A DNA stretch of 63,119 nucleotides, filler included, from Hausera hauseri (GCA_046269625.1; 10 parts of 10 records of this genome joined end to end with filler, not necessarily neighbours in it); one strand, 5' to 3'. Positions 13,782 to 63,119 are shown, numbered from the whole stretch's first letter. The notes: a model not told the origin generated them from the sequence alone. A program made the numbers and translations.

Positions 13782-15775
13782 TCATGAAAGTACTTTTCCT
13801 CCTTTAGGCTCGTTATCATTTGAATTATTTCGTCGCGTATTAGGTTTTGTAAATTTCCGCTTGTACAAAAACATAGGCCTTCCTTTTCGTTTGCGATTAT
13901 GATAACCGAAATGACGTTCTTCGTCTGATTTCCATCTATTTTCTTCGTATGCCTTTAAAAACTTTCCAAAACGAGTAATGACTGCAGTCAGCATTTTACA
14001 TGAAAATCCGGTTAATGTAAATATTTCACAGCCATTTATTACTGCTTGAATGACGGCCTTAATCATTTGTATTAGGAAATATATTTCTAAGAATCCGGAT
14101 GCGACTTGGCCAAAAATCAAAAATCTTCCCCAAATTTTGTAGAGTATTTCTGTGGTTACTCGCTGATAATGGTTTACGCCAAGTAATGATTCCCATTTAG
14201 CTTGGTATCGAGTGTCATCCACTACAGAGGCCATGGCTCGATTTATTTCATGGGTCCGTTGTCGCGGAAAAGCGAGAATTTGTCCGAAAGCTTCAAGTTC
14301 CTTAGGTCAATATATGCCTTTTAACGATGTGTCTTAAAATTTGTCGTCTGTAATTCCTTTTTCGAGATTTGTTCCTGTTAATTTATTTGGTGCGGCAGTA
14401 ATACCTCCATGTGGCAGACTAACTAAATCCGTTTCACTACGTCTAAACACGGGTTCTCCTAAGCTTGCTTTACAATCCTTAAGGATTGTCGGTTCAGTTG
14501 CATTGTCTAATTGTACTCTAGTGAGTGGTATAGCTAACCTTGGAGTACTCTGGTAAATAACAGGAAGCTTCTGTATGCAAAGTTTTTCTTCAACGTTGAT
14601 TGGTACATCCCTTTTCTCACATTCGTAAGTCAATAGAACTTCACTTTTAACTCGACCGAAGATTCCTTCTCTCATAGGAATTATTGGGGATGCAAACTTA
14701 GGATTAGCGTAAATAAGAGCCAGTTTTGTCCTCATAATTTCCATATCCAATTTACAATCATGTGTTATCATTTTATGATATAATTCAGTTATTCCGACCT
14801 GCCCTTTGTAATAGAAATAATCGTCTCTGTTTTTCAGGTAGTCCTCAATCCGAATGTCTAGCGTTTCTAACTTGTAAGCCTTAGCATTTATTTCTGTCTC
14901 GGCGATGAAAAGCGCCTTATAGTTAGTAGCGAACATCACTACTTCACAACGAGAAATCATTTCTTTTTTAATAAATTTTAGCCCATGCTGATCAGAAATT
15001 AATACAGTAGGTGTAGGATGTTCTGATATGTCGTCGTGTGTTTATGAATTGGTATTAGATTTATCCGCATATCGCCTTCCGGTAGTTTTATTAAACTTTA
15101 ATTCCTTAATTTTGATAAAATTAGCCTCTTCCAGAGGGAGGTTCCCAGATTATAACAGAACTTCTAAAAGCACAAGTTCCGTCTTGTAAGTGACATTTTT
15201 GATTCTCGGTATATAGTTTGGTGACAATATGGAACATTACTTTCTGTGTTCGCATCTCTGATTCATAAAAATCCACGACCACTACGTTTGCTTGTAATCT
15301 TTTTCCAGTGACGTATTCCGCTCCGTTACAATGTCCGTTATGCACGCCTAACCTTCCGACCACTTCCTTGTATGCTCTAATTATCTTTCTTGATAGCATT
15401 TTCAATTCCATACTATCCCATTGTACTCTTCCGTTCTCTTTAGCCTGTTTGCAGTGCTGGCGTTATAAGTTCATCGGAATTGGAGGGGTTGTTGGTTTAA
15501 TTATTGAAGACTGTCCGTGCATTAGTCCACAGTGAAAAATGCTACGAGATCTTTCAGCATACATTCCATTCCATCTAATGATATCAATTCTTGTTGTTGG
15601 TACAAAAAATAATTTTTCTCTCTCGTTTCTAACCTGTGCGGTCTGACATCTTCGCACACTTCCAAATCTATTGGGGAATATTTCTGCCTTAGTTTAAACT
15701 TATCGTATTCGTATACGGTAACAGCGCCTATGTGTTTTATTAGCATCATCAAGGTGAGTAAGCTGATAAGCCAAT
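13782..15775 (-). pseudogene. Chuvirus-like / gB-type (class III) envelope glycoprotein, fragmented
   Basis: Internal signal peptide WLISLLTLMMLIKHIGA, then IFHCGLMH, CNGAEY, CxxxxGxC..IIWEPP, DCKLDMEIM, EVLLTYEC, CIQKLPV, PLTRV, and a TM region FGQVASGFLEIYFLIQMIK..INGCEIFTLTGFS. Confidence 0.75.
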
Positions 15776-16436
15776 TTGTTTCATTTTTCTGGTTACTACT
15801 ATCTGTCGTTGTTAAATTATGTAGCATGCCTTCAAGCCTATTGTAATTTCCGGACCGTTTATTTTCTTCTTTTTCGAATATTCTTAACCAATTTACTTCG
15901 TAGGGTAGCTTTTTTGCCGCTGTTTGTGATAAGCTTGTAGCTCTATTAATTTCCTTCTCTCGATTAGGGGTTATTTTGATAGCTAAGTACAGTAAAAGTT
16001 TTCTCAGTTCTTCAATGGTGTTTTCCACCATGATCTTCTCGACTACCGAGTCATCGGTTAAGTTTCTTTTTGATAATTTGAAACGTGAACTCCTCGTCAT
16101 CCTAGCTGCATCGAATATCTCTTTCTCTCTATCATCTAATGTGTCGCCTTGGAGGCTTGAACAATTTACAATGCGTATTAAATTCTTCATTGTCTGTGTT
16201 GAGGGTAGGTATCGACATCTGTTTCAATTCTCTAATCAATTCCCCATTATAGTCAACTTCTTGTGTCTTCTTATGCCTACCGACTGGGCGTTTCGGCCTT
16301 GGGACATTGGCTATTATTTCACTCAGTGGCACTAAATTCTTATCGTATTGTTCCTTGTACTCATCCGTTTGTAAATACTCGAAATACATTGCAGCATCTC
16401 GGACTCCCATGATTTGTTCTACGCATTGTTCCGTCT
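15776..16436 (-). pseudogene. Unidentified helical/charged domain fused N-terminally to the glycoprotein (possible gag C-terminus)
   Basis: ORF 15522..16190 runs in frame into the glycoprotein signal peptide; ORF 16132..16410 overlaps it by a frameshift. Confidence 0.4.
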
Positions 16437-19269: not shown

Positions 19270-20400
19270 TAGATCGTCAATTCGGAAATTCTTGTGTGAT
19301 ACTTAGCAGAGCCACATGGGGATTTATAATCGTAACAGTTCGAGTATTCACGACTCCAACAAAACCTCGTTTATATTCGTCATATTTGGCTTTACAATCA
19401 ATAAGAGAAAATACGACAATTTCCGATTGATTATTTTCGTCCGTTTGTGACTTTGATATTAAATTTACAAGCTCGCCAATTTTTTCTACCGATACTAAGA
19501 ATGTACAATGTTGCCCTACTAATTGATCTTCATTCAGAAAGGGTTCTATATCTATGATAGTATTGTTCAATGAAACAAGATCGGGTATCGGGAAAAGTAA
19601 AGCATTCTGTAAAGCAAACGGACTACTCTTGTCAACACCGCAATACTGTTCGATTTTACTAAATTTCTCGTTTATCAACAAGGCAAACGCACATGACGCC
19701 TGCACATGATATGTGATCCTTTGGTAAATTCACATCTACGGCAACATAGAACACAGATACCACGTCGCCAATATGAAATGATGAACATCATCTCTGAATA
19801 ATCCGAATTTCCCCACGACGTAATGTTTATCAAATCACTCACAAAATCTCGTAAAGAAAAACTGAATACTCCACTAAATTGCGTACTATTCGACTGATTA
19901 TAATTAAGTATAATTTTGATGTGACTTTTTGTTACGATTAAATTTCTAACTTTTACGGAATAGTTAAATAAGTTTATAATCTGTTCCGTCAACATTCGAT
20001 TATTACCAACGGTAGATGGAGATTTGGATGTGAACCCACATAAAGGAAGTAGCTTTTCACTGACACCTTGATTTTGACAAATGACAAACAGTAGGCACAT
20101 TGTAAAAGATGTACCGTAATCATTAATCGGTTTGTTTTCGACGAATTCTACAGACCGGAATATGGTTTTAAAAAATGGTTTAAGCAGGGTTGTGAACACG
20201 TAATTGGATATTCCACAACGAATGGTATGTACTAAACGCTTATATGAACATACAGCAAGTCCAAAACTACTTTTGCGACCATGTAAACAAGATTCAGGTA
20301 TTTCCCTACTTACAAAACCAAGGGAAGGCGATGCTGTGTCAACTGTATAATGGACAAAGAAGTAGGGGAAAAGTGGGTAAAAAAATATCATGAATAAAAA
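19270..20400 (-). pseudogene. CLEC16A: Decayed fragment of a CLEC16A-like (GOP-1/Ema) gene
   Basis: KPFFKTIF..NDYGTSFTMCLLFVICQNQGVS..NRMLTEQIINLFN resembles RPFLDMVY..DDYHALFVLCLLYAMSHNKGM..NHPLAERLIRIMN. DLVSLNN lies downstream. Frameshifted. Confidence 0.6.
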
Positions 20401-20464
20401 ATGTATAAAAAATATTCACCAACCGAACAATGCATAATGGTGAATCTCACCTCATCGTGTACAG

Positions 20465-21975
20465 GTTTCTCCATGATCGGTGGTAGCATGTTGTATTGTG
20501 GAGACTGCAAATCGATGTTTTGCAAGTCAACCGCGTCATCTTACTGGTGATCTGTCCGAATTCGAGTTGTAACTTATGGAATACCTCAGAGGCCAAATCT
20601 GATCGATTCTTTCGAATTTAAAGTATACCTAGTAGAAACGCCGATTCTAAATCGTTGATTCGATCGACAGTGTCGCTGATGTTAAGTGCCATAGACAGAC
20701 AATGCTGGATATCGTCGGCCGATAGAACGGTGAGATCAATATCGAATGTACCATTAATCATACAAATTAAAAATCCGCATTTGACAAAGAAGGTAACAAG
20801 ACACATCTTTTATATCAGTATTCGATAGATATTCTTTAAGTCTATCCGAATCTCCCCCATTATTATAATTGGATAATTTCACATTACTTAAAAAATTTTT
20901 TGAAATCAGATGAATAAATAATCTGTAACGGATTAGCGCACAACGTAGACTCAATGTTTGTAACTGATGAGTCATCACAGACGAATTTATTAACTAACTT
21001 TGATTGAAACTTTTGTAATGGATTTGTAATTCCTGCATCTCTTCCAAAAATAATCATTGACGAAACAGAGAGATATTGAGAAGTTGCCATATCAACAATA
21101 AATAGACATGGTACGTTAATGAAAATGCTTATTGTAGAAGATGTTTCCGAATAAAATATCATTTCAATTTCATAGAAATTAATACGGCAAACCGAAACAG
21201 TTTTTTTGTTATCAAACTGGCAGATTCAATTTTCAGACAATCATTAAATACCTGAATAGAAAATAAATATTTTAAGTCTTTCCAGTTACAGGAGGTATTG
21301 AAAACCACTTCATAAATCGTGGAATCCGACTGTTCTAATCCGATTGTAGGTTTCTGGAATTCAAGATATCGTTTTACCAATAATTTTTATTGGTCATTTG
21401 CGATCACTATTAATTCTTCAAGAAAAGCAAATCAAAGTTCAATAGTAGGCAGGAATCCCAAAGCCAAACGGTGCGAAGAAGGTCACCGGATGAAACCGAA
21501 CAAAACAAACCATTTTTTAAAGCTTCCAAAGAGATTTGTAAATTCTTTACTGATAAATTTCTTCTTTACATATTTGTCAAAAACGTACGAATCTGATTTC
21601 GGAATTTGCATGTCGGTTTGATCATGCCGAAATATGTTACTATTAAAATTACCGATTTTCAAAAACAGCTTGGCCAACAATTGGTCTTGTGTACATATTG
21701 GATCGTGATCACTGTGAATTTGGGAATATTTATTACCGATATATCGGTGAACAACGGCACATTTAACACATAATGTAACATACAAATTAATCGAACACCA
21801 TTCGGGGTTTCCGGCCCTGCATTCAACACAATTTCGATTGTAATCATTGTCGAAAATTTTATCCATGAAACTTTTCGTGTTTAAATTTAAAATGGATGAC
21901 CACTTTTGACATGATTCGACATTTCGGAAAACGATTTCCAATTCAACTGTGTTGCTGAATTTCTTCAGATTATTT
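20465..21975 (-). pseudogene. Decayed ARAP-like fragment (PH end, ArfGAP zinc finger, PH region, start of RhoGAP)
   Basis: NRNCVECRAGNPEWCSINLYVTLCVKCAVVHRYIG..SQIHS, LKIGNFNSN, KYVKKKF. LPPIMEK near 20465 resembles a RhoGAP start. The ArfGAP call is firm; ARAP is inferred. Confidence 0.65.
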
Positions 21976-22875
21976 AATGATACAATCGAATTGCTTCTTT
22001 TAAAATGAGGAGCACATCGATTTTCACTATACGTAGGTGGTCCAAATTTAAAATTGACACAACTGTCCTGAAGTAAGTTGAGATAGATTAAAGCTACATA
22101 TGTTATAGGCCATGTAAGCACATCGAACATAAACTTCAAGAGCACATTTTCTCATGTTATGCATTTTATGGTAAAAAAGCACTCAATGTGTCAAAAACTT
22201 TACTGTTTGAACAAATAAGTTTCTCGAGCCGAACAGTTGTATGCGACGTTGAATAACGACTTAAACTTTTGAGGAATGCAGCTTCAGTCTCATTCTTCCC
22301 AACTTCGTAACTCGGAGTTTTTGTTCAATAATCAAAACTTCTCTGAGTTTGGCAACAATTTTTGCGAACGATTTAGAATATAAATTGGTTAAAACTTTCA
22401 AAATTATACCATTCAGATCAGTAACAAGGCCAGGTAAATATTTTTCAAGATAATCCATTAAGACAATAATAATTTTATTTTTTTTCATTGAGCTTGCTAT
22501 GGGAAAATATATCCATGGCTGAAACTGAGTATGTAAATATATGTTCAGAATTTTCCATTTCCTGGAACTTCATTTCACGATCCAAATAATTTCGTAAAAG
22601 GTTTTCAATTTCATGCTTGGCATTTCCTCTGATACCATCAGAATAAACTTCTGCAAGTTCAAGAGTTGGTCTCAAGATCTGTAAATAGGCCAATTTGAAA
22701 TTTTCTTCTTCAATTTCATTCAGAAAATTTTCAATTATTTTACGAAGCTCCTTTGATGGAAAACGAGAAAACAATGAAGAATAATTGGATGTATATTGAC
22801 CCATAACATTTCAAAGATTAGTAACGAGTCTATCTGGTAATAAACACAGTCGAACCATATTTGTATTTCTGTATA
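21976..22875 (-). pseudogene. ACAC: Decayed central-domain fragment of acetyl-CoA carboxylase
   Basis: MGQYTSNYSSLFSRFPSK, YSDGIRG, LLRNYL, IFSHS..KKNKII, TPSYE, EKLI..KVFDTL, FYH..ALEVYVRCAYMAY are colinear with the animal ACC central region; frameshifts present. Confidence 0.9.
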
Positions 22876-22886
22876 TTCTGACACCA
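22876..22886 (-). promoter_or_regulatory. Truncated tRNA-Leu PBS (TGGTGTCAGAA)
   Basis: Same ACA-T-TGGTGTCAGAA junction as 12151-12165. Confidence 0.8.
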
Positions 22887-22887
22887 A

Positions 22888-23422
22888 TGTTTGTAGGGTT
22901 TTTTCATAATAAAATCCATTAACGCGGTAACAAAGCTTTATATTTTTTCAATTCTAAACTAATTGATTATTTCAAAATCAATATCTACAATATTTATATA
23001 TACTATACAAATATTTATATGCAGTTTTGAAAATTTTTATGGTAGAATTCGTCGAATATTTTCTTTCCGGCAGAATATCAATTCATTCCGATGTATATTT
23101 TTGTTTTTGGCCGAACATCATATTGAATCTTGACCAAAGGAATACTCAAATTCGTATTGTTATGACCCGACACGACAGTAAAATTCGTTATAATTTTTTT
23201 ATCTTGAGTAAAAGAACAATAGCATGTTTTCGACTGTAAACTCGATTGTTTGGTTGGGTTGTTATAGTTCGTATAGGACGTTCCGGGACGACGAAATAAA
23301 GCACCAAGCACATAAATTTGTCGGCGAATGAAAAACAAGTGAAAATAAAATTGTATTTACAGTTAAATAAAGAAATGAAATAAAAACGAAAGCACGATCT
23401 CGTTGTGCACAACAGCACCATA
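22888..23422 (-). mobile_element. Complete ~535-bp LTR preceded by a PPT and followed by a PBS
   Basis: Minus strand GCAAGGGGGTGA-TATGGTG (TGTGGTG variant) ... TATA-like TATATAAATA ... AAACA-T-PBS. Confidence 0.7.
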
Positions 23423-24238
23423 TCACCCCCTTGCAAAGTCAGTTTTTTCAGGCGGGGTCCAACGTGAGTCTTCTGGTGACCAACACGTCGGTGGATTGTA
23501 ACCGAGAAGACGAAATACGTTCGGCAGGAATTCTTCGACTTCTCTCCAATAGGACGATGCAATGTCGATGAAGCTCACAATGGCAGCGCCGTATATTTCG
23601 GTATCGCCACGTGATGCAATATACGTAGTTAAAAACAGTGCACGGTCCTTTTCTTTCCAATTGATTTGGAGATTTTGTGAATAACTATGTAATGAACTCT
23701 CGATGTAGACCGCAAAATGTTACAATAATTCTTTCTTGGATGAGCTTACTAAGTGTTTTGATCATGGTTGAAAATAATAAAATTAATCAGTATACAAATT
23801 CAGCAGACGAAGAAATTGCTACTCCTAACTAGGTTTTATCAGATAGTGCTTTACCATCGCAAACTGTGTATTCAGCATTCAATAATCAATTTATTATGCC
23901 GAATAATTGTTTTAGTTCTTATGTTTTACCCGTTACGCTATTAAATAATAAAAACAATTACATATTTTACAACAGTTCCATTATTACAGATTTAGACCTG
24001 GTTCAGAAGAGTATTGTCGTGTTAACTTAGTTGGAAATTCCAAGGCAGCAAAATACCTGAAATACGGGTATAAATACAATTACTCTTCAAAAATTCGATC
24101 GCCTTCAAGAATTATATAATCGTTTTCCACTTTTGAACAAACTGCTGGTTAAACGAACATACTAGAAATCTTTTGAGTATCGACAGAATTTTACAGGAGT
24201 CGGACATGTTGCACAGACTTAAAGAAAAACGACTTTGC

Positions 24239-34428: not shown

Positions 34429-34608
34429 CTATCTATTGTCATTTTGGACAAAGACATAATTACATTCTGTCCTGCGAATTGGACAAGTATTGTTGTATTG
34501 CATCCCAGTTTTAAGGCAATCAATGCAGAATATATGATCTTGACATGTTGCTAATCTTGCATTGAAACAGTTTCTCTCCTCGAAGCAAATTGCACACCTA
34601 CTGTTCAT
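34429..34608 (-). pseudogene. RING-HC zinc finger ORF convergent with polB (below the ORF-track cutoff)
   Basis: MNSRCAICFEE..CQDHIFCIDCL..TCPIRR; last Cys lost. Confidence 0.75.
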
Positions 34609-35351: not shown

Positions 35352-35624
35352 GTGTTAAATCAAATGAACATTTACCGATTGTACGATACAAATTACTTTA
35401 ATGGTGTTGAAAAGGTACGCGGTGAATTAATGAACTTAAAAGCGAAAATAATGGACAGCGTACGAGACTGTAAGTTTATGTGTGTACTATGTAAACAAAG
35501 GAAAGTGGATACGGTATTCTTAATGTGCGGCCATCTCGTTGTTTGTCAAATATATTCCAAAGTAACCCAATGTCCAGAGTGTAAATGTGCTATAATGAAA
35601 ATTGTACACATTTATTATGAATGA
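35352..35624 (+). CDS. IAP/MDM2-type C-terminal RING finger protein (partial, possibly decayed)
   Basis: CVLCKQRKVDTVFLMCGHLVVCQIY...CPECKCAIMKIVHIY; one Cys changed to Tyr. Confidence 0.75.
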   Translation: MLNQMNIYRLYDTNYFNGVEKVRGELMNLKAKIMDSVRDCKFMCVLCKQRKVDTVFLMCGHLVVCQIYSKVTQCPECKCAIMKIVHIYYE

Positions 35625-39542: not shown

Positions 39543-39642
39543 NNNNNNNNNNNNNNNNNNNNNNNNNNNNNNNNNNNNNNNNNNNNTTAATTAATTAANN
39601 NNNNNNNNNNNNNNNNNNNNNNNNNNNNNNNNNNNNNNNNNN
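39543..39642. other. Artificial contig spacer
   Basis: Ns plus TTAATTAATTAA. Confidence 0.99.
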
Positions 39643-40072
39643 TTAAAATAAAATTAATCAAATTAATGATTAGAAACATCCAATATAAATTAAATTAAAT
39701 ATAAAACCAGGATAAAATTAAGATTATATGTACACAGTAATATAAAAGAAGCCCATAGTGCTCTTACAAAGATCTTAATAAGATCGAAATATCAGCTTTT
39801 GCAACATTATTGTCCTCAAAAGATATATCACTTTATATTATATTATTAAATATTGCTTCAAAAGAATTTTCGTATTCTGAATCATTTTTCCAAATAATGA
39901 CAATTTCATGATGTTTTTATAGTTTTATAAATATGTGCGTGTGTGGCTGTAATTTCTTTGGCTGTCATTTCATTGGGAGAAAAGTAGTATAAATAAAATA
40001 TTTGTTACTTAAAAATATATTTTAATATGTTATATATTTTTCTTTGTTTTTTTCTTACTTCACATTATAGAT

Positions 40073-43000
40073 TTGCAGTACAATGGATCACAGTTTTTCA
40101 TATGTCCATCATGCGAAATATTATCAGATGAAAATTTCAATGAATTTCAAAATCGACATGGACATCACCTAACATTGTTTAAAAAACCTAAAAAGGCAAT
40201 ACTCGAAGAACATAGTGAAATGATTAACAAACAATTTGTGGCAGATCAACAAATACCAACAACATCAACTCATCAACAACAACCAGTTAAACGAAAATTG
40301 AAAAGAAATTTAAGTGAGAATGCAAATAAGAAACAGAGACATTCTGTAAGTAAAGACCCTGTACAAAAAATAAGACTCGATGTACAATGTGTTATCAACG
40401 ATAATTATGTTAATCTTTGTTTTGATGTCGCGCCCGACCAACTCATTTCGACCACACCTCCTGAGAAAATTCTGACTATATTTCATATGTACACATCCCG
40501 ATTTTCATCTTGTAAGGTTCAGTACGGTCTGGAAATTATGTTTCCTAATTCTGAATGTGACTTTAAGGAAGCATACATTCCACATCAAGCCGTGCCTTAT
40601 GAGCAAGTTTATCTCCAATCGTAGCCGATAGTTTATGTAAACAAGTTGAGAATTTTGATGAAATGGGTAGTGGATGGAAGATAGGTAAGATTCTAAAATA
40701 CTGCTTTCACATAGTGAAAACAAGCCCACTACCCTACTTATCCGGATGATCATATCCTTCAACACCGGAAAGCTTTGAATAATGCAAAGGCCGTTGTTAA
40801 TGTACAGAATGAAGACAATTTGTGTTTTTTATATTCAATTCTGGCAGTGACCCAGTATTCTTCTATCGACCATAATAGATTTAGAGTTAACAATTACACT
40901 CCTTACTTAGGGGAATTGAAATATGTCTTGGAACATATGCCAATGAAAATATGCAACATAGGCAAATTTGAGAAGAAGAATCCTCAGTTGTCAATTAATG
41001 TTTTTCTGTTTTATGAGGAGGATGATGTGGATTTTCATAGTTAAAATTTTAAAGTACTGCTTTAGTACAGTGAGAACAAGTCCCCTACCTTATTTATCTG
41101 GACAGTCGTATCTACCAACACATAAATCTTTACGAAATTCAACGGTCATTCTTAATGTACGGAATTAGGACAATTTGTGTTTCCTGTACTCTATCCTTGC
41201 TTTGACTAAGTACTCTTATATTGACTGCAGTAGATGTGGAGTAAATACCTATGCTTCTTATTTAAATGAACTGAAATATTCTTTGGTTTATATGCCCATA
41301 AAGATATGTAACATTGGGAAACTTGAGAGGCAGAATCCACAACTTTCCATAATTGTCTTTTTCTTTCGCGATGTAGATATTGTAGATTTTGAAGAGTACA
41401 TGGTGGAAAATCCATTTATTGATATTTTGTATCGAAGCAAAAACCCGATTGGTTCTGTAGTGAACTTTTTGCTTTTAGAAAATGAGAATAAACTTCACTA
41501 TGTGGCTGGTTCCAGTCTTAAACGATTGTTAAATATTCACAGCAAGAAAATATGGATTCAATGTAAACACTGGTGTGAGAAATGTTTGCATGGCTTCAGG
41601 TATAATACTTCTTACTTTAAGCATCTACCAGTCTGTATGCCTTTATCCAAATGCACTACTTTATGCAAAATGCCTGAAAATAAGTTTTGCAAATTTAAGA
41701 ACTGGGCCAAATCAATAAGTCCTCTATTTGTTATATGTGCAGACTTTGAGTCTGTTCTGTGTCTTGACGATAAGGTAAAGCATATTCATTTGCCTGCTGC
41801 AGCCGGTCTTTTATTAGTGTCTCTTTCAGATATTCAATATAGACAGCTTTTTGGTGAAATTTCTATAGTTGAGTTTCTGGCTTATTTAGAGGAAATAGTC
41901 TAAACTGTAGTTTATTCATGGTATGAAAATGCAAAAAAGCTATGATCCCGTTAACGTCTGCTGAATGGTGCTTGTTTAAAAATGCCATAGCATGTTGTCT
42001 TTGTCATGAAAATGGTTCTAAATTTGTTCGTGATCACTGTCATGTCACAGGAAATTTCGTGGATCAGGCTTCCAGTACATGTAATTTGGCTCGACAAATT
42101 AGGTACAACTTACCGGTTATTTTTCACAATTTGCGTGGATATGATCTTCATTTTATTTTAAAACACGCACTAAGTAAATTTAATACTTGGGAATTAAGGA
42201 CCATTACACAATCAACAGAAAAGTTCCTAACTATACAGGCAATGATACGATGTTCAGGTAAAAAGTCACTTTCCATTCGATTTCAAACTCCTTGTAGTTT
42301 TTACTGGCTTCACTTAAGACTTTATCTGCCAACTGAGACAGTTATCCATTCACTGAAAGGGCTTTCTCGTCTGACATTATTAATGGAAAAGGCACTTTCC
42401 CGTAAACTGCAGCCAAATCATTCTCCCACTTGCAGTCTATTTCTCAGTTACCATCAAAATGGGATTGGAGTTAGTCATAGGCGCAGCTTACCTGGTTAAG
42501 ATATAGGTGTAGCAATCTTTTGGATTATATGATAATATACATGAAACTAGACGTATACTTGTTAGGTGATATTTTGGAAAGATTTAGAAAGGAAGTAAAA
42601 TTGCAGTATGGCTTAGAAGCAGTTAATTTCGTGTCCATTCCAGGTTTGTCTTGGGCAACAGCATTGAAATCGAGCCCTTGTAAAATTGAACTTATTCAAG
42701 ATCCTGAAATGTATACTTTCTTCCAATCAGGTATTCGGGATGGTATGACATTTGTAAATAAGCATAGGATTACCACTGATGAAAGCACCAATCTCTTGTA
42801 TATAGATGTAAATAATTTCTACGGCTGGGCTTTATCGCAACCTTTACCATTTGCGAATTTTACTTGAATCTATGATGAGCATAAATTAGATAATCTGATT
42901 GAACAATTGCCTTTTACTGACAATGTTGGGAAAAAACGAGGTCTCGTCTTTGAAGTCGATTTATCCATTCCATCTGACAAGCATGGTAAATTGGATCAGC

Positions 43001-43980
43001 TGCCTTTAGCTTCGATTAATCAATACCATCCTGGTTCGAGAGTTAAGAAATTGTTGTTGACACATTAGCATAAGTTCAACTATATTATTCATTATCGGCT
43101 CTTACATCTGTACATCGAGTTAGGTGCTGCAGTTGAAAATGTACATCGAGCCGTTGAGTTTGATCTGGGATGTCTTTAAGGATTACATCGACTTACATAC
43201 TGCTAAGAGGGCTGCAGCGCGAAATGTTTTTGAAAAGGACTTCTTTTAATTGAGGAATAATAGCCTGTATGGTAAAACTGTTGGAAACCTGTTGAAAAGG
43301 TCCAACTTAAGTTTGTGTAATAATGCTAAAAAGTTTGTTACATATGCTAGTAAGGCGCAGTTTAAGAAAAGCATTATAATTGCAGATGATCTAGTTGCCG
43401 TTCTCCTCGATAAAGATATGGTTACCTTAGATAGGCCCTCATACATCGGTCAGGCTGTACTTGATCTTTCCCACTTGCAGATATATGAGCTGAATTGCAT
43501 CGAGTTGGAGAAATATCGTCACCAATTTAATTGTGAGTTATATATTGTGGCGGGTGACACTGACATCTTTTTCCTTGAGTGTTGTGGATTTGATCTATGG
43601 TCTCGGCAATTACCAGCAGTGATAGCCAATGAACAGTTGGATACTTCTAACTACGACGCTACAGACCCTCTTTATTCGACTCGTTTCGCGTCTGTCATAG
43701 AAAAATTTAAGGACGAGAGTAAGGGTAGTGTTGAATATCAAGAAGCAGACCCGTCCTTAAATGTAAGGGCATAAACCTGAAACAGACAGACCTACAGTTC
43801 ACCAACTACCTATTGTCATACAAAAATGGATGTGCGACAATTGCTGGTCAAGAACAGATTGGGACTAAGAACCATCAACTGATGACAGTCAGTACAGGAA
43901 AGAAAGCCTTGGACTCTTTTGATGATAAGCAACACTGGATATGAAAAAACAAAAGTCTTTTATGGACATTATTGTATTTT
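40073..43980 (+). pseudogene. Third decayed Polinton-type pPolB, with an N-terminal CxxC..H finger and a duplicated OTU-like segment
   Basis: CPSC..HGHH; NVQNEDNLCFLYSIL-type motif twice; ICADFES, RDHCHVTG, FHNLRGYD, YMKLDV, YIDVNNFYGWAL, NNSLYGKT, AGDTDI, FKDE. Confidence 0.9.
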
Positions 43981-44602
43981 ATTTGTATGTACTTCAATTA
44001 CATACCACCAAATAATCACATATTAGGAAAACTGCGAATGTGAGAAAAGCAATTTAGCAAAATTAAAACAAAAAAATTTTTGGCGCGAAAATACAAATGT
44101 TTAAACGCTTAGAATCCATACAGTACGCCTGATTATGTGCATCCCCTTAGTGACTGTCTCCTATCTCCGCCCTATTAACAGTATGTGTATCATTTTTTCT
44201 ACCCAATGACTCATTTGCGAACCACATCTTTTTTCCTTTCGGCGCGGGGGGTCTGATCTCATGAACTCCTTTCCTACTACTGATACAATTATGTATTTGT
44301 CATCTAACACTGGTTATCGTCTAGTAGAAAACCTTAGAGAAAAGTATTTGTTGTCATTTATGGCTCAAACCTAATACATGACTAATGGTAAAAATTAGGA
44401 ATTTGGTGACAATACAAACGCAAAATGTTATGATATGAAATGACATTTAGAAAATTTTAATTTTTTTGTAAGATGTAAGGAAGATGAAAATTGAATTTGT
44501 GGCAGAACAATCAAATGAAAAAATAAACAACATAAACATATTTTATGGTATTCAAACCATTCTAATTTCTACTTTCTGTAGTTTTTCATTGTACTATTCA
44601 AT

Positions 44603-45742
44603 TTATGATGGAGACTGAACAACGCCCACCGGCTGCTGCTGTGTTACACAATGAATCATTCCACCCAGTGAGAACAAGTAGCGAGAATCGATCCCAACGA
44701 CTTCTCGAGTCGGATATAATTGCTGAATGATATTGTTGGCAATCGCGTCATTTGGGTCACTGTAGTTAGGAACAAGCACCTTTGTGTTACCAATGTAGTA
44801 ATTCGCATATGACCCTTTATATTTCAGACTTTTTCCATTACGCAATTTGACCTTCGTACTTGTCAGTGGTACTGTGACTATATCATACTTCACTCCAGCA
44901 GCATTTTTGGAATTATACAATTGCGATATATCACTTGTCGATACGCCCCATTCATACTCTAAATCACGTTTTGACATTGTCAGAATTGTTGTCGAATTAA
45001 TAAATCGCACGAATCCATCAATATGCATATCTGTTATATCTTTACCTGCCACACCATGCAACCATATCATATTTGTAATGCCGTAGTACTGGGTCATATA
45101 ACTCGCGAACTGTTCTGCCGTCATTATTGGATTCCTGTTTTTATTGATTGTAGAGCTCTTTGTTGCCATCATTGTTCCGTGTCCATCGGCTTCAACAGCG
45201 CCACCTTCAGTTATAATTTCACTTGATAAATCTATGAGCTTTACATTTTTAAGTTTAGCCACATTCAGAGCTACAAGTGCATCATTCGTATAAGGTGCCT
45301 TTTGTCCCCATCCGTTGAATCCGTAACGTATCGCAACAAACTTCCCATTTCTACCTTTTGCGAATATTGGTGCAGTATCCCTGGCCCATACATCGTTGGT
45401 TTTCATAATGTTGAAATCAACCCTTTTTAACGGGACTCCGGCAGTATTCAGAAGGTCGGTAATGCGCTTTTGTTCATCATCATCATATGCAACTATATGG
45501 ACATTCTCACCGTCAACAAGAGCGCGAGTCATTGCAACCCAGGAGGGATCAAGTTCATTACGAAACATTTTCCCGTAAGTATATTCATGTGGCCAAATTA
45601 ACCATGTACCCTCATGTGGCTCGGCTTCATTAGGGAATCTATATAGAATATTTTCAATTTGGGCGTTGACACCTTTGAGATACATTGTCACTGACAGCAG
45701 CAGTGTAAGATAAAGCACAAATGCTGAAACTTTCATCATCAT
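44603..45742 (-). CDS. aguA: Secreted agmatine deiminase / peptidylarginine-deiminase family protein (intact)
   Basis: HEGTWLIWPH, NDVWARD, EGGA, NRNP, DMHIDG, SYANY, GGMIHCVTQQQP with catalytic D/H/D/C present. Signal peptide MMMKVSAFVLYLTLLLSVTMYLKGVNA. First ATG is at 45742; the track's 45766 is a TTG. Confidence 0.93.
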   Translation of the reverse strand: MMMKVSAFVLYLTLLLSVTMYLKGVNAQIENILYRFPNEAEPHEGTWLIWPHEYTYGKMFRNELDPSWVAMTRALVDGENVHIVAYDDDEQKRITDLLNTAGVPLKRVDFNIMKTNDVWARDTAPIFAKGRNGKFVAIRYGFNGWGQKAPYTNDALVALNVAKLKNVKLIDLSSEIITEGGAVEADGHGTMMATKSSTINKNRNPIMTAEQFASYMTQYYGITNMIWLHGVAGKDITDMHIDGFVRFINSTTILTMSKRDLEYEWGVSTSDISQLYNSKNAAGVKYDIVTVPLTSTKVKLRNGKSLKYKGSYANYYIGNTKVLVPNYSDPNDAIANNIIQQLYPTREVVGIDSRYLFSLGGMIHCVTQQQPVGVVQSPS

Positions 45743-46599
45743 CGATATAGGTTCAATTCTATACAAAATTGATGAAAAAGTACATTAAACAAGATACTTT
45801 ACTTAGTTGATAATTTAGATACTGTTCGCCTTTATATGTAATATTTATAGCCCTAGTTAAACAGACCGTGTATGAATTGAAATTTAAATAAAACACCTGT
45901 ATATATAGTTGTTTAGTATTGTGCGTATAATGCTTGATTGGCCAAAGACATGCAATATTTGCATTCAAAATGAACTATTTGTCAATATGGAATCACGAAT
46001 GTTTTAAATAGCTGATCGCAATTATTCGCTACTTAACAATCCTACTCTTTTCCTTATGCAATTAACTTTGACGCCTGAAATCCCAACCATTCAAATAAGT
46101 CACAGAGACACATTCTCGTCACATTGTTGATTTCTGTTCACAATGTTGTATTTAACAGAAGTGTCGTTGAACTAAGATCCTTTGAAAGTTTAATTATGTA
46201 TCCTTTTAGTCAATAAAACATGATTATTTTTGTATTCAAACCTAATTTCAAGTGGTAATTATTGATAGTTTCACATACTTCTTCAGGTTGACAAAATGTA
46301 TTGATTAGAAAATCGATATGAACTGAGTAAATGATGAATCAGTCACCAAGTTACAGACTTAATCAATCTTCTATGGTTATGACATTTAATAAACTAGCAA
46401 GAAAATGAAAATATGTTGAATATTTTATTTATGGTGAAATTTAGGACGTTTTGCATTATTTAAGTTTTCTACACATACTTCAAAAAGACATCACATTCTT
46501 CTAGAAAATGTGATTTATCTCTAACATGTTTAACTTCCGGCCTTGAAGCAACAAAAGGAGGAAGGCATCATCAAAATTATACTACCATATTGATACAGA

Positions 46600-47010
46600 G
46601 GTCTATTTGTGAAGCGTAAAACACAGTATGTATACGTACATCAGATGTGGATAGACATGATAAAAGCTGCGAAACCAAGCAAGCCATTTGCGGCTGAAGA
46701 GATGACAGCTTCTGATGTTTTTATTTTCAAGCCTTTAATAAATCTTTTTTGCAACCGAAAGACGACAACTGATGGTCAGGTTTTTATTTCCAGAAATTCA
46801 GCTTCAACCTGCTTTTATGAAGTATAAGTACAATCACAGGATAGAAAACAATTTTCCAGTCAATTTAAACAAACGTGGTAGATTTCCTAATCAGAATGAA
46901 GTTACTTTGCTCCTAAAATATCCAAATGGTCGAACAGTCAAGCAATCAAAGGTTAATAATTTGCAGTGAATGATGCCATTCATATCACCAGTTTATCATT
47001 CTTACTATTA
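46600..47010 (+). pseudogene. C-terminal remnant of a DNA-transposon transposase (Sola-like)
   Basis: VYVHQMWIDMIKAAKPSKPF..EMT..D..F, YKYNH, KVNNLQ*MMPFISPVYHSYY pattern. Confidence 0.5.
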
Positions 47011-47929
47011 GGCCATCATTAGTCATGGTACAGCAAATTTGGGAGCTATTGAGGATCTGTAGAACTAGACGAAGTTTATAGGAAGTCTTATAATCATGTT
47101 AATCATGATTCGAACTGCTGTAATAAATCTAATAGTATCTATAACTTAATGTATAATGTACTTATTTTCTCAAATGAATCCATGATTATAATAATAAAAA
47201 ATTAATTATATTTTATCATATTTTTTAGTTAACCGATCCGCCAGCAAGCTGTAGATTTGCACGAAGATTTTAAACATATTATTACATTGTGGTACAGTAA
47301 TAGATTTTTATTTTTTGTCTATTGCGCACAAAATGAAATTACGCTAATTTGCATTTTCCCAAAAATTTACTAACAGTAATATAGGCCGTTATTGCCGAGA
47401 GACATTCAGTTATGTGAAGGTTTAACAAAATCTCACAACATGAAATATGGATACTGAATATGTGTCATTTGTGTAATAAATATTAATGTTGTATTGTGGT
47501 GTTCTCTTTCGGTAGTTTCATTAAATTCATCAACATAAGTCATACAAAGTAATCCATTTATATCATGCAAATGGAATAAAAATGCAAAGTAAACAAATGA
47601 CAATATATTTTCTATTACATTTTTAAAAATACCATGTATTCCAAGATTTTCAAACATGTGATTACAACTTTACCTGTGTGGAAAAAATTGATTTACAATG
47701 GATCAAAATTTGTTAGTCTGGGATAAATTTGTTGTCATTCTGTTGAAATTTTTTCAAAATATTATAACATTGACTTTGTTTATATCCGCTTCCTTAACTA
47801 ATATGTTTATGTAGCAGTGATAACCATCCCCTCCCTCCCTAACTCCGCCAATATATAAGTCATTGTTTTATAATTTTTGTGAACCATAATGTTAACAAAC
47901 ATTAATTACAAAGGATATACCAAAGAGAA

Positions 47930-48029
47930 NNNNNNNNNNNNNNNNNNNNNNNNNNNNNNNNNNNNNNNNNNNNTTAATTAATTAANNNNNNNNNNNNNNN
48001 NNNNNNNNNNNNNNNNNNNNNNNNNNNNN
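47930..48029. other. Artificial contig spacer
   Basis: Ns plus TTAATTAATTAA. Confidence 0.99.
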
Positions 48030-57515: not shown

Positions 57516-57595
57516 TGCAAACTTTTCATGGTCAACTAATTAAATTCAATCAGTGTGATTATAAATTGAATCTAATTATTTGCAGTTCTGACAAA

Positions 57596-58633
57596 ATGAC
57601 AAAACGAAACAATTATCAGTGCCAAACTCCCAAATTGGGAAGCCTTAATCAAACTACAAAGCAAGTTACAAATGAAAAACTAGCAGATTCTAGACGAGAA
57701 AACATAACCCGAAAGATTCAATTTACCACATTACCATCTTATCATGAAATCAGGCGCCTCTCTGTCGCAGAACGAAACATGATCATCGCATTCTACGAAA
57801 GGATAATTGAACATTCTGAAAAAAAGATATACAAAGTCGGAGAAATTCCGAACTATTTCAAATATGGAGAACTTCGCAACAAACAATTAATTCCCCTCAA
57901 AATAGTTAGAATCGACAAGATATCAACTACCAAAGATAACTGAAAATAGTAATGGATTCACAATACATGTAGCCTTGGGAAAAGTTGAAATAAAATTCCA
58001 CAAATCAAATGAGGATACCGATAACGCAAGTCAGAATTCCAATAATGATTTGAGAGAAGTTATACATAGTCAAGAATCAATTCAGATTAACTATCCCCTG
58101 GAATCAAGCCGCATACAATTGGTAACAAAAGAAATGATGACCATCGGACTACTGGAAATATTCAAGACAGAAGTAATTCACCATTGGCCAGAACCGATGA
58201 AATTCGAAGAGGAACCAACAGAAAAGGAATTAAAAAAAATCCTAATATTTTAATGACAAGCAAAGCGAGAACCACGCGATATATAGCAGTCTCCTTCTCG
58301 TATGGATTCAAATCAGATCGAACTCAGCTGACGTTACCAGTGGAAATTATAATTATCTTTCATGAATTTATATCTCCAAGAAGAATGATTAATAATTTGA
58401 ATAAGGCCAGACATGGAGTTGATTGGGATCAAATTAATAGCGAATTGGACTCTCCAAAAGCACAGGCTGAATTTACCAAATACATAATTCGATTTAAAAT
58501 CGTTGCTTTGGAGAGGCACACAAAGTTTTTAAAGCTTCGTGTTATTTATTGGGTGGGTCCTATTCGACTCCCACTATATAACAATATTTTCACTCAAAGT
58601 TTAAAATTTACTATGCAGGTCCGTCTACCGTAA
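57596..58633 (+). pseudogene. Diverged paralog of the KVGEIPN-domain plus pseudo-DEDDh cargo ORF
   Basis: KVGEIPN is shared with ORF 61349..61780. RYIAVSFSYG..PVEI..FISPR..HGVDWDQIN aligns with RIVAINYEEG..AIEI..IINPR..TGIKREQLN. Confidence 0.55.
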
Positions 58634-58762
58634 TCGAATAGACTGACTGTACACTAACTATTTAGATCACTGTGCGGTATGTATATGCGTGTGATTTGTG
58701 CAAATAGATTAGATATAGTTCTCACTCTTAGCTATTGATTTTTCTCTTGATTTTGACCTTAA

Positions 58763-59225
58763 TGTAGTCGAATCACCCTTAGGGGGCTATGAGAAACTAT
58801 AGATAAATTGAACAACAAAGAAAATATACCTAAAACGTTAATCACGATATACAATACACTTTCAGAATACGCTTGATTTAGAAGCAACAACAGAAGAATC
58901 AAATTTCAGTCTCAAATTTGAACCGCACATTTTTGAATTTATACACTGCAACTTCGTTATGACTTTTCGTTTTCGTTAGCTCTTTATATAGCTTTTCTAG
59001 CTCATCTATTGTTTATTTCATTAATGATTTAATTCAGTTTTTTTATTTTCTTTGTAGCAAAATTCTATTGCGTTCGTTAGTAATTCATTTACATAACAAA
59101 ACTACAGTATTCTCTACTAGAATTTCCATTATATAACTGATTAATAAATTACAATTCTAGATAATGAATAGCAATACTACTTAAATATGTACAATATACA
59201 CATTGTCATTACAATTTTCTCCCCC
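58763..59225 (-). mobile_element. PPT (59216-59225) and putative ~450-bp 3' LTR (58763-59213)
   Basis: Minus strand GGGGGAGAAAA-T-TGTAATG...TATATAAAG...GACTACA, giving TGTA..TACA termini; the distal end is inferred. Confidence 0.65.
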
Positions 59226-59469
59226 GCTATTCATACTATTTCCTTATTATAACATATCTCCTCCCTGAACGGCATCCTCGGATGTGCCCATTGCGTCAGG
59301 AAAGGTGCCGCGGTGACGGGGGCTTCGTAACAATTCCGTCCGCTGGCTTAGGCTGGGTCCAGAACTGGTACTGGGCTAGCGTTCTCTGGGGTTCGGCTCC
59401 AACTCATAACTGTGGTAGAGTTTGATTCTAATTATTCGGGTGTAACTACCATTTGAGTAGTACTTTAGG

Positions 59470-61780
59470 TCAGCGGATTCCGTTCTGCACACTGGACATG
59501 TGGTCTTCCCATTATCCAATGTCTATTTTTCTAGGCAGTCTCTACAATACTTATGACGACAATTGAGGTTATTTAGCATCACGTATCCTTGTTTCATGTT
59601 CGCCTTGCACACCGGGCATTCGTTTTCTTCTTTCGCCCAAGTCTCATCGTCTAGATCCACTCTCAACAGAATTTCAATAGGCTCCACTATTAATTTTTGT
59701 TTTGGGTTTATTGAGCTTTTCTTCGGATCGCATCCGACAGCTATTAGGGTCCAATCGCTGATAGTATCTCGATCTAAATCGGGAACTTCACCAGTCGATC
59801 GGTATTTCTGGTACTGTTTTTTCAGTAGTAGTTTAACTGATTTATCCACAGGAACTAAGATTTTACCATTCCGTTTTGACTGAAATATTGGTGCAACATA
59901 TCTTTCAATTTTGGGATTTTCCCAGACATAGGTATTCTCGTAGACTTGTCTGGCAGGCATTAGTTTAATGAAAAACATTGCTTCTTTAATTTTCTGTTTA
60001 CTATAATACTCGGTGGCTACTAACATCCTGGGGTAGTCTGCGGTTGTAGCATAATGGACATTTTCTGTGGATGTCTTCTTCCGTAAGACATTTATTTGGT
60101 TATTTGTTCTTCCTGTTTTCTTTTTGATTTTATTTCAGTTTTCTCGATTCGGGGCTGCATCCTTGGCCTTGCGGGTTCTGCGGTTGATATTTCTGGTTTC
60201 AGGTCCTTTCTGCCCGTTTTGGGTTCCTCTTTCGATCCTTTTCCACCTCCTTTGCTTTTCTTCTTGAACAAGTCATCGAAAAAGGAGGTTTTTCTCTTTG
60301 TGGGTTTCCCGGTTTCGGTTTCTGAATTTCTATATTTTTCTTCTATGTATTTTTGAGGAACTTCTGGTATCTTAAATAGGTTATTACTTGCTGTAGCGCC
60401 ATAGCTTGTACTGGGTTTTTCATCCATCCGCATCCTTTTTTCCTTTTCCTCCGTTCTTAACCCTTGTATGTTTATTTGGTAGTTCCATTCTGGTTTGATC
60501 TTGACATTTCTGGGCGGGGAGTATGGGCGAAACTGTTTACGATACCGTGCGCTGAGCCTTTCTGATTTTGGGAAATTTCGTAAATTTTGTCCAGGGTTGT
60601 TGGGAATCCATTCGTGTTTCCACTTAAGCCCAGCATTTATATCTCTCAGATACTGTGATCTTTGACTTGCGGATAGCACTCTATTCATTTTTACGTTTTC
60701 CCTGATCAGGGCTTCTACCATTAACTTGAAACGGCCCTTCATAGTCAGTGGTACGTGGCTCCTTTTTTCTTCTACCTTGTTTTTCACTTGTCTCATAATA
60801 GTTGGGTGGGTTTCTATTTCTCTTACTCCGGCTATATGTGTTATCGGTAAGGCCAATTTCTTCATTTTTCTCTATATTTGATACCCCACTAAGACGTATC
60901 CATAGAGACATCGCGTTACTTTCTGCTGTATTAACTTGAAATCTTTTCCATGATTCAATTGTTCCCTCTTTATTCCGGTAATTTCTGCATGCTTTTCAAG
61001 CACCTTTTGTCTTGGGTTGATGATTTTTGAGTAGACTTCATTCCCTTTTTCTTCTCGGATGGATATTTCGATGGCAAGATAATTTCCTTCTTCTCCTTCC
61101 TCATAGTTTATCGCGACAATTCTGAGATTTCTCTCGTCGGCCACCAGTCTAAACGAATGTGAATGGCTTTCTTGTTCATCTTTTGTAGGCTTTCGCCTAA
61201 ACTCTAAAAATGGTAATGTTATAGGCCTTTCTTCTTCTTCTGTCGTTTCGATCATTATCTTTACCGGCAAGGCGGCTATGCGAAATTCCAATTCGTGATT
61301 TTTGAGGCTTTTACTATTGAACACAAAAGTACTAAATCGACTTTGTCTTCATTGGAAGGAATCCCATTTCTGATCCCTTAGTCGATAGTATATTTCCCCG
61401 TCCGCCAAATGCATATAAATCCTCTGTTCCTTCTCTGGTTGGTATTGAGCGATTGGTTTGAACGGGTACGCTCTAGCATATTTATTTTCTCTCCATGCGT
61501 ACAAATATACCGTCCTGGCCTCCTCGGTGGTTCCTTTCAAACCGTTTGGGATCTCACCAACTTTTCCATATTGGACAAAGTTTTTGCCTTGTAACTCGGT
61601 ATTGATTTGTCTGTAGATTGCCTTTGAATTTGTGATCTGTACTGTCACGTATTTCTGTAAAAATTCGTCGATACTAAGTCGACTTGTAGTGTTCTCGGTG
61701 TCGATTCTAATTCGGCTCCTAGTATCTCCTGCGTCGATCCTAAGTCGGATAGATTCCATTTGGGTCTGGTTACTTACCAA
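59470..61780 (-). pseudogene. Decayed cargo polyprotein: KVGEIPN domain, REX4/ISG20-like pseudo-exonuclease, basic linker, RING-HC
   Basis: ORFs 61349..61780, 60872..61324 and 60092..60865 share one frame, separated by single stops. ITGIKREQL..DFKLIQ..VLVGY is REX4-like. CPVC..CRHKYCRDCL*..CPVCR is a RING. Confidence 0.7.
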
Positions 61781-61939
61781 TCTGAAAAAGAAAATATAAA
61801 GGTTAATCTTTAAACAAAGGATGGTTTTAAACCAAAACCAATTCTTTGTTTGATGACAGGATAACCCGCTCTGTAATTGTCAGGTTATTTTATCATACGG
61901 GTCAACAGGGTTTTCCAGTTCCCTTAATTCCCATTCTGA

Positions 61940-63119
61940 ATTTCTACGACGCTTAGAATAACAGTTTTTGGTGACTAATCGAAAAATCGCAATTTACATT
62001 ATGAGAACAAACGTTGACAGTACAGAGATGGATATGATTGGTAATGTAGTTAATCCTGTCGGTGCTTGTGTGGTGATTGGAGTTGTTATTTCTCCGTCGA
62101 TATCCTCATATGTATGCGATTCTGCACGGACTTCATCTAGAGTGCGCAATTTAACAGTTCGGTTTTGTTTATTCTCTGCATACACTTGTACTATGTATTC
62201 GGTCTGTGGTTTTAATAAATTGCACTCAGTTTGATAAGTATTTTTAAATAGCGTCACGTTGTCCGGCAACATATATATGTTGAAATTTTGTTTTTCCTCT
62301 ACGAAGAACACAATCTTAGACCGATATGCCGAATATCTAATAGGGATGCTTCCTAATTCTCTTTTAGGCACACTGCCCGACGTAGCGGTTCCCGTAATGG
62401 CACCAACTCGAGTAGTCGGTCTTTTGGTGGTCGTTTCCACTGAAATTTTCCAAATTCTGTCTTCTGGATAGTAAGTTCGCAGTTCTATACTTGGTTTATT
62501 TGGTCGTACTTCATGTAAGTCGAATCTTATTTTAAATTCTCGGTCAAGAGTATTTTACAACATGGATGTTATACGCTTGAACGAATAGAACACTACTCTA
62601 TTTTCGGGGTCGAACCAACTACTGCTTCGAATGTGATACTAATTTCCTGACTATGAGTTAATCCTATTCGACCATCTACTTGTAGGCATTGCTTTTCCTT
62701 ATTCACAGAGATTTTCTGAATATTTTCGTCTAGTATTCTTATTTCTGAGTCCGTTGATCGTAATATTTCGTTAAGCTTTATTCCGTGATGTCTGTTCCAT
62801 GCAGGAATGACTAACTGAGATTGTGGTTTTACTTCAACGTAAACGTCGGTTGACTCTGGTAAGTATAGACGATAGGTGAGGTTATAAGTACGTCCAAAAT
62901 CTATGTGGCAACATTGCGTATTTTCTCCGGCTTCGAAATCACAATTTTTTGTTTCTTTTGTTGTTAGGTCAAATAAGACAATTTGAAACTTTCCGAAATC
63001 GTGATACGGTTTCCAAGTCTTAAATCCAACGCATACGGAGTTTGGTGAATAATAATGAATTGTCAATTATTGTAATAATTTAGTGTCTTCTTGTTTTTGG
63101 ACCTCTTTGGCTGTTGGCT
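61940..63119 (-). pseudogene. Type-I membrane protein with fibronectin type III-like domains, Thr-rich stalk and TM, decayed
   Basis: LKPQTEYIVQVYAEN and GRTYNLTYRL (FN3-like); TTPITTQAPT; LPIISISVLSTFVLIM*IAIF followed by KRRR. Confidence 0.65.

Follow-up and report, generated by a model that had tools for sequence, protein, structure and literature searches.

Does an animal carry in its own genome a secreted guanidino hydrolase taken from bacteria, and if so, how did the gene arrive and what does its product do? The locus that raises these questions lies in a 63,119-nucleotide stretch of DNA from Hausera hauseri (GCA_046269625.1), here called the window, in which 10 contigs are joined with N spacers between them; contig 8, 8.3 kb in size and bordered by two such spacers, is the sole contig that bears on the finding. 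An earlier, sequence-only reading had described an intact, secreted, bacterial-type agmatine deiminase beside a dead Polinton polymerase, domesticated by a eukaryote and possibly delivered as Polinton cargo. We find it somewhat more probable than the alternatives together that the deiminase gene has a Bacteroidota-related origin, resides in a probable animal host, next to a dead Polinton-derived element but likely beyond its end, and encodes a predicted secreted enzyme with an action like that of centiPAD, an enzyme of the centipede Lithobius, from which it was gained separately.

Table 1. Features of contig 8, with positions counted from the first letter of the window.
Feature	Position	Strand	Basis or remark
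Contig 8	39643..47929	.	33.8% GC; N spacers 39543-39642 and 47930-48029
AGTAGT, weak left-end candidate of the element	39983..39988	+	sole AGTAGT on contig 8; chance 0.08
Protein-primed family B DNA polymerase (polB), broken (Polinton/Maverick type)	40073..43983 (about)	+	PF03175 pieces; six tblastn pieces, frame changes
Tandem duplication inside polB	40681..41390	+	two copies of ~355 nt, 71% alike
Near-palindrome TTTTGGCGCGAAAA, within the terminal region of the element	44078..44091	+	sequence inspection
ACTACT, likely right end of the element	44276..44281	+	end motif; chance 0.04 within 140-nt zone
Pentein guanidino hydrolase ORF (PF04371), intact, intronless, 379 aa	44603..45742	-	exported bacterial subfamily
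Predicted signal peptide, residues 1-27	45662..45742	-	hydropathy; helix 2-27, then low-confidence linker in model
Possible 44-nt 5' UTR intron, GT..AG, upstream ATG inside	45759..45802	-	motif only
Two TATA-like boxes, candidate	45830..45849	-	TATAAAG 45830-45836; TATAAATA 45842-45849
Two short open frames, low-copy repeat	46594..46969	+	up to 8 contigs with other letters in public run X1
Second high-copy host repeat, candidate	47399..47929 (bin boundaries)	.	summed depth ~19,000

The deiminase ORF is stop-free and needs no intron to encode its full length, as had been claimed. Its product matches the PF04371 profile with E=1.3e-89 over positions 1-321 of 321, and a score of 301 bits against a gathering score of 25 places it in the family. 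The full catalytic set described earlier is present as D122, H240, D242, N314 and C365, by reference to the set given for PPAD and the E. faecalis agmatine deiminase in the portion of PMC4487231 used here, and the channel residues W119, W145 and G361 are kept. An AlphaFold2 model (pLDDT 86.8) adopts the propeller/pentein fold. In structure comparison the model reaches a TM of 0.80 to 1xkn; the values run from 0.73 to 0.80 against agmatine deiminase structures and from 0.68 to 0.70 against PPAD.

The signal peptide proposed earlier is borne out as a hydrophobic N-terminus, with a peak 11-residue Kyte-Doolittle mean of 2.31 compared with at most 1.7 elsewhere, and cleavage is likely to fall after A27, a site judged by eye. 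C365 is the single cysteine of the protein, which therefore has no lipobox, and the C-terminus lies 14 residues beyond it. From these features the deiminase is probably exported from the host cell. Among its bacterial relatives, a lipobox pattern is matched in 102 of 138 subfamily rows, and the proteins P0147 and P0149 bear T9SS tails. As a sign of domestication the signal peptide says little, because members of the bacterial subfamily are exported too, and for the same reason it may simply be inherited.

The best relatives of the deiminase are 52-59% identical and make up an exported, mostly Bacteroidota subfamily. Of 2687 protein matches, the 120 listed peak at 59% identity; the highest value is likewise 59% over 80 genome loci, and it is 58% over 80 metagenome loci. 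Shorter proteins reach 63% among those covering half of the query, with higher values only on short conserved ends, and 50%-cluster representatives reach 54% at full length. No close relative appeared in the protein, genome, metagenome or cluster searches.

In quick IQ-TREE trees of 52 and 27 rows, hand-picked from the matches, the deiminase is sister to a Bacteroidota-dominated clade with an SH-aLRT of 91, a support that comes from a quick search, lies below the starred threshold and attaches to a long deiminase branch (0.84-1.17). Nesting within a vertically inherited eukaryotic clade, which would have counted against the sequence-only reading, is not what the trees show: a single clade of the deiminase with two eukaryote-looking members, P0155 and P0163, is rejected (p-AU 0.0027), and plant enzymes are distant (E=4e-35). 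A position beside the partial sequence P0167, seen in a first FastTree tree, was not reproduced in IQ-TREE and was dropped. P0155 and P0163 have diatom-like N-termini by eye and group neither together nor with the deiminase, and could be further independent transfers. The gene likely came from Bacteroidota-related bacteria.

Whether it now sits in host DNA turns on depth and linkage, both taken from one public run, X1, which is possibly the window's own source and in which depth is no copy number. Contigs of the run cover all 30 bins of the stretch in both layings, and several positions (46277, 47021, 47024) show only non-window letters. The gene lies in a low-depth zone (44352-47398; summed depth 21-61) flanked on both sides by repeats of 14,000-395,000. 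Exact-match pieces listed for the locus reach depths of 24 and 26.7 inside the ORF; those upstream stand at 9.83 and 9.93, and the contig 8 polB copy at 13. This pattern would fit a gene with collapsed alleles and differing flanks. The end of the Polinton-derived element is crossed by a depth-21.3 piece (44155-44351, 94% identity), which extends 126 letters to one side of it and 70 to the other. A coverage or linkage break had been named earlier as the mark of a contaminant join. What emerged from this one run is a gene at host-like depth, with covered bins and a bridged element end; the linkage is piecewise, in that no listed piece contains the gene together with its flanks.

If the ORF came from a symbiotic or contaminating bacterium and had been fused to host repeats during assembly, one would expect the purely bacterial relatives and the lack of a coding intron that we see, as well as a GC content (40.5%) inside the range of the 10 bacterial relatives checked (33-51%), and the stretch is covered by short pieces only. 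We nevertheless give this explanation little credence. ORF, Pfam and blastn comparison revealed no other bacterial gene on contig 8, and in blastn against 160 bacterial and metagenome loci all 196 of 196 matches fall within 44626-45658. Non-coding DNA borders the ORF for ~850 nt on its upstream side and ~320 nt on its downstream side. The depth of the ORF matches that of the polB copy belonging to the host, both flanks show differences like those between alleles, and there is the piece that bridges the element end. Contig 8 also lacks the AraC-GyrI regulator that precedes the gene in 46 of 80 bacterial loci.

Run X1 also contains a diverged copy of the gene, a 514-nt piece of depth 6.39 that matches the ORF at 81% and 83% across 44631-45098, gap-free and of equal length. 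Because this piece is far closer than bacterial DNA (~64-66% over the longest blastn matches), we take it as a second ORF copy. Its depth is about half of the single-copy level, so that its source could also be a polyploid subgenome, a different organism or one of several individuals pooled in the sample. Variants in the run also speak for the purifying selection that had been proposed. The ORF makes up 36% of the stretch, yet it holds none of the 12 listed indels (27 in total) and 3 of the 40 listed substitutions (259 in total), namely F357Y, I29T and one silent change; these figures are from the best-supported rows only, which favours repeats in the flanks. At the F357Y position, Tyr is the commonest subfamily residue. 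The ORF free of listed indels, the gap-free second copy and the shattered polB alongside support coding constraint. The repeat context and the Atlas taxa of the polB homologue make an animal host probable, and a transfer of the deiminase gene into a eukaryote is likely.

Both neighbours of the gene had been called decayed. This stands for polB, which is broken into six aligned pieces with frame changes, but the upstream neighbour could not be upheld as a transposase, since a Pfam profile search returned 0 families for either of its fragments. An Rfam search of contig 8 gave 0 matches.

Other contigs of the window hold features of separate interest. On contig 3, broken frames at 13785-16223 (-) match a Monjiviricetes-type fusion glycoprotein (PF24664) beside retroelement-like frames. 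Contig 4 has MEIOB/CLEC16A, ArfGAP and acetyl-CoA carboxylase matches within ~4 kb (19277-23574, -), a packing that reflects either the capture of gene fragments or a eukaryotic genome of great compactness. Contig 10 (57516-63119) carries tightly packed frames on one strand. Some match RING or, weakly, fibronectin-III, and one is possibly exonuclease-like, as judged by eye; together they may represent an endogenous viral element. A 1815-aa Ser/Lys-rich, low-complexity ORF at 219-5666 (+) belongs to no Pfam family.

Did the Polinton bring the gene? The broken protein-primed polymerase and the deiminase are convergent, as had been noted. In run X1, polB is a very high-copy repeat, the depths of its contigs adding up to as much as 395,000. 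The Atlas clusters nearest to its homologue are 91% Eukaryota with Arthropoda commonest, Atlas taxa not giving the range of the family. According to PMC8097293, Mavericks most often have (ACT)2-3' at their 3' end, which agrees with our choice of ACTACT as the right end. The repeat ends about there, because its depth drops from 14,475 (bin 44075-44351) to 28.9 (bin 44290-44394). The deiminase stop codon is 321 nt past the end motif, outside the high-copy zone. We found no terminal inverted repeat for the element and no clean target-site duplication, the hexamers flanking its two ends agreeing at 4 of 6 positions. The near-palindrome close to the right end presumably resembles an E2F site.

If the gene had arrived as cargo of the adjoining Polinton, one would expect an intronless gene adjacent and convergent to polB, in the same arrangement as the RING genes noted earlier on contigs 6 and 7. 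We do see these ORFs, RING-like by eye from their Cys/His pattern, although the host of those contigs need not be that of contig 8. Cargo has reportedly been moved between species by Mavericks. Yet the end motif and the fall in depth separate polB from the gene, the summed depth over the ORF is 25-90 compared with tens of thousands of contigs matching polB, and adjacency is expected by chance where such elements are so abundant in the run. Searches of viral contigs with the deiminase and with its alignment found no relative, a weak test in that the polB homologue found none there either. The earlier suggestion of Polinton cargo is thus not borne out; a cargo origin is improbable, and the locus does not show Polinton-mediated transfer. 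We retain a gene that is likely outside the element.

Several observations concern the elements themselves. The stretch at 39983-44281 may be a 4.3-kb derivative of a Polinton with polB as its only gene. Of the 35,687 contigs from run X1 that were aligned to the locus, most match polB, an unusually large expansion. The RING-like ORFs, which are short and each face a broken polB, lie at 35364-35624 (+) on contig 7 and 34429-34608 (-) on contig 6, and the polB of contig 7 is 73% alike to that of contig 8 over 122 nt.

Upstream of the ORF, the TATA-like boxes and the GT..AG stretch that had been pointed out are present in the sequence. In simulation, the chance of an intron-like motif is 0.017, of a TATA motif 0.10 and of both 0.002, values that are optimistic because the motif was loosened until the observed one passed; a stricter intron rule does not match the 44-nt motif. 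Among arthropod introns, 44 nt is short. Run X1 has a one-base insertion at 45774, inside the putative intron. It is plausible that the boxes and the intron are host promoter features. Separately, a depth-5.58 piece matches the promoter region at 45776-45951 by ~89%, and could come from a second copy or a distant allele in which the TATA region is kept.

The name agmatine deiminase does not pass sequence tests. The protein scores 189 bits against a cut-off of 381.8 for TIGR03380 and 201.1 against 483 for NF010070, and the amine-binding acid is replaced by isoleucine. In Medicago AIH, Asp220 holds the amine of agmatine, according to the sections of PMC6447857 used here. At this site, four residues ahead of the catalytic His, six solved-structure sequences (1xkn, 1zbr, 2jer, 3h7c, 6b10 and 6nib) have D/E, but the deiminase has Ile236, and 154 of 156 rows of the subfamily have I/L/V. 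The comparison with PPAD fares no better, because the carboxylate-binding arginines are missing: R152, R154 and Y233 of PPAD correspond to G144, G146 and T237, as mapped by eye from the available part of PMC4487231. The C-terminal Ig-like and T9SS domains of PPAD are absent, with no T9SS profile match.

The bacterial neighbourhoods provide a potential clue to the substrate. In the 46 loci mentioned above, the gene is preceded on its own strand by an AraC regulator whose GyrI-like domain binds small molecules; the distance is within 120 nt in 45 of them, and in 3 loci of Bacillota members a MerR-GyrI regulator takes its place. Among the 73 neighbour-family representatives from 80 loci, a scan of directly adjacent ORFs of 120-700 aa, there is no N-carbamoylputrescine amidohydrolase, transcarbamylase or arginine decarboxylase; several families are acetyltransferases, glyoxalase-family proteins, hydrolases or transporters. 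In bacteria, members of the subfamily would be guanidino hydrolases that are inducible, act alone outside the cytoplasm and likely serve in detoxification; in the host, the enzyme would be secreted and have the same chemistry. For the deiminase, the regulator context hints at a detoxifying or secretion-modifying role. The association of the exported PF04371 subfamily with GyrI-like regulators of two families (L002-L080) is possibly an undescribed inducible detoxification module; we found no literature joining agmatine deiminase with GyrI, and no report on the deiminase gene described here.

The same origin and location would be compatible with an ordinary extracellular agmatine deiminase that removes agmatine or supplies N-carbamoylputrescine and ammonia. 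Agmatine deiminases are the closest folds by TM, the three channel residues are kept together with D117, the equivalent of Asp89 (numbered as in the available part of PMC6447857), and relatives are named agmatine deiminase in databases, although automatically. The neighbouring D235 could also take over amine binding, with agmatine as substrate. We consider this explanation rather unlikely, given Ile236, the two missed NCBIfam cut-offs and the lack of any downstream pathway gene in the 73 neighbour families. Because there is an isoleucine at the amine site, and because the bacterial genes have sensor regulators and no polyamine neighbour, the substrate is likely not agmatine in a putrescine pathway.

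We therefore return to the secreted, centiPAD-like enzyme and propose how it might work. An old bacterial transfer would have been followed by duplication and retention under selection. The gene would be transcribed by the host from the TATA-like promoter and its product exported via the signal peptide. D122 and D242 would hold the guanidinium, C365 would attack and H240 would serve as acid/base; in pentein chemistry ammonia then leaves and water yields a ureido product. The substrate would likely be an extracellular guanidino compound or an Arg-containing peptide, and the enzyme would detoxify or modify a secretion, working in the manner of the Lithobius centiPAD.

The idea that animals lack such enzymes does not hold, since centiPADs are known from two centipede lineages and the Lithobius centiPAD belongs to the same subfamily. 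As set out in the accessible part of Undheim and Jenner 2021 (PMC7864903), PAD moved twice from bacteria into centipedes, with the Lithobius transfer coming from Bacteroidetes; one Lasius and four fungal branches are mentioned as well. Its authors could not exclude a symbiont source, because no genome was available; centiPAD had no genomic context. Likely centiPAD paralogues occur in venom and defensive secretion (PMC11170834, in part), and the function of centiPAD is called unknown in the consulted part of PMC4379518. Vertebrate PADIs are a separate lineage, according to portions of PMC8826395 and a preprint. The main text of a Metazoa HGT compendium (PMC13342648) makes no mention of such a gene, and its data files may list further animal members; five myriapod genome supplement files gave 0 matches.

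Against this background, one can propose, tentatively and with low confidence, that an exported, sensor-regulated subfamily with a non-agmatine pocket was caught independently by several eukaryotes, including centipedes and the host of this locus. If this is true, invertebrates would possess a secreted means, distinct from the vertebrate PADI, of citrullinating or disarming guanidino toxins and peptides rich in Arg, and the locus would prove for the first time, at the level of the genome, that the subfamily has become integrated in an animal. The host-repeat setting and the second copy make animal integration of a centiPAD-type enzyme more credible, and repeated capture is suggested. The GyrI-like regulators and the altered pocket offer a testable substrate lead for a large subfamily and, by extension, for centiPAD.

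How does the locus compare to known systems? With Polintons/Mavericks as described in the available part of PMC8097293, it shares a pPolB and the (ACT)2-3' end motif next to the deiminase. However, contig 8 has a broken polB only, neither inverted repeats nor genes for an integrase, an ATPase or a capsid were seen on it, and the deiminase lies beyond the end motif. AguA and the plant agmatine iminohydrolases (2JER, 6B10, 3HVM, 6NIB, 3H7C) have the same pentein fold, catalytic residues and Trp-lined channel; the deiminase differs by Ile in place of Asp/Glu, by its sub-cut-off scores and by its signal peptide, and its bacterial relatives have no polyamine-pathway partners alongside, unlike AguA. 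PPAD of Porphyromonas gingivalis (4YT9), from the part of its description used here, is likewise a secreted pentein with a Cys-His-Asn triad and two guanidinium-binding Asp. Its structural identity to the deiminase is 18%, and its Ig-like domain is missing from the deiminase. Nearer are the exported proteins of Chitinophaga, Pedobacter, Flavobacterium, Saprospiraceae and some Bacillota, which have the same active-site signature at 52-59% identity. These are lipoproteins or carry T9SS tails and usually sit behind AraC-GyrI/MerR-GyrI, whereas the deiminase here has no lipobox, tail or regulator.

The closest parallel is the Lithobius centiPAD, and a single transfer that makes the two genes orthologues, with a centipede as host, would account for much of what they share; it forms one reading with vertical inheritance in eukaryotes, in whose favour P0155 and P0163 exist. 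We regard that reading as highly unlikely. Among the Lithobius sequences in the available part of PMC7864903, every one seen across the region has a five-residue insertion that is absent from the deiminase and common to 3 of 149 database relatives. By hand count over the Lithobius sequence available, identity is ~51%, below the 59% to bacteria. Grouping the deiminase with insertion-bearing bacteria gave a p-AU of 0.045, which is marginal and a proxy, the centiPAD sequences themselves standing outside the tree; the clade with the eukaryote-looking pair and the distance of the plant enzymes count against vertical descent, as noted above. The two genes are likely separate acquisitions. CentiPAD is backed by venom proteome and transcript evidence, in the sources as far as used here, whereas the deiminase is known from genomic context alone. 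Even so, the available parts of PMC7864903 and PMC11170834 agree with our locus on several counts: both enzymes are exported, Bacteroidetes-derived members of one PF04371 subfamily, with shared motifs (supplementary file 11) and an Ile/Val amine position; both have a signal peptide without a lipobox, five catalytic residues and changed PPAD specificity residues; and Lithobius has paralogues, just as a second deiminase copy is present here.
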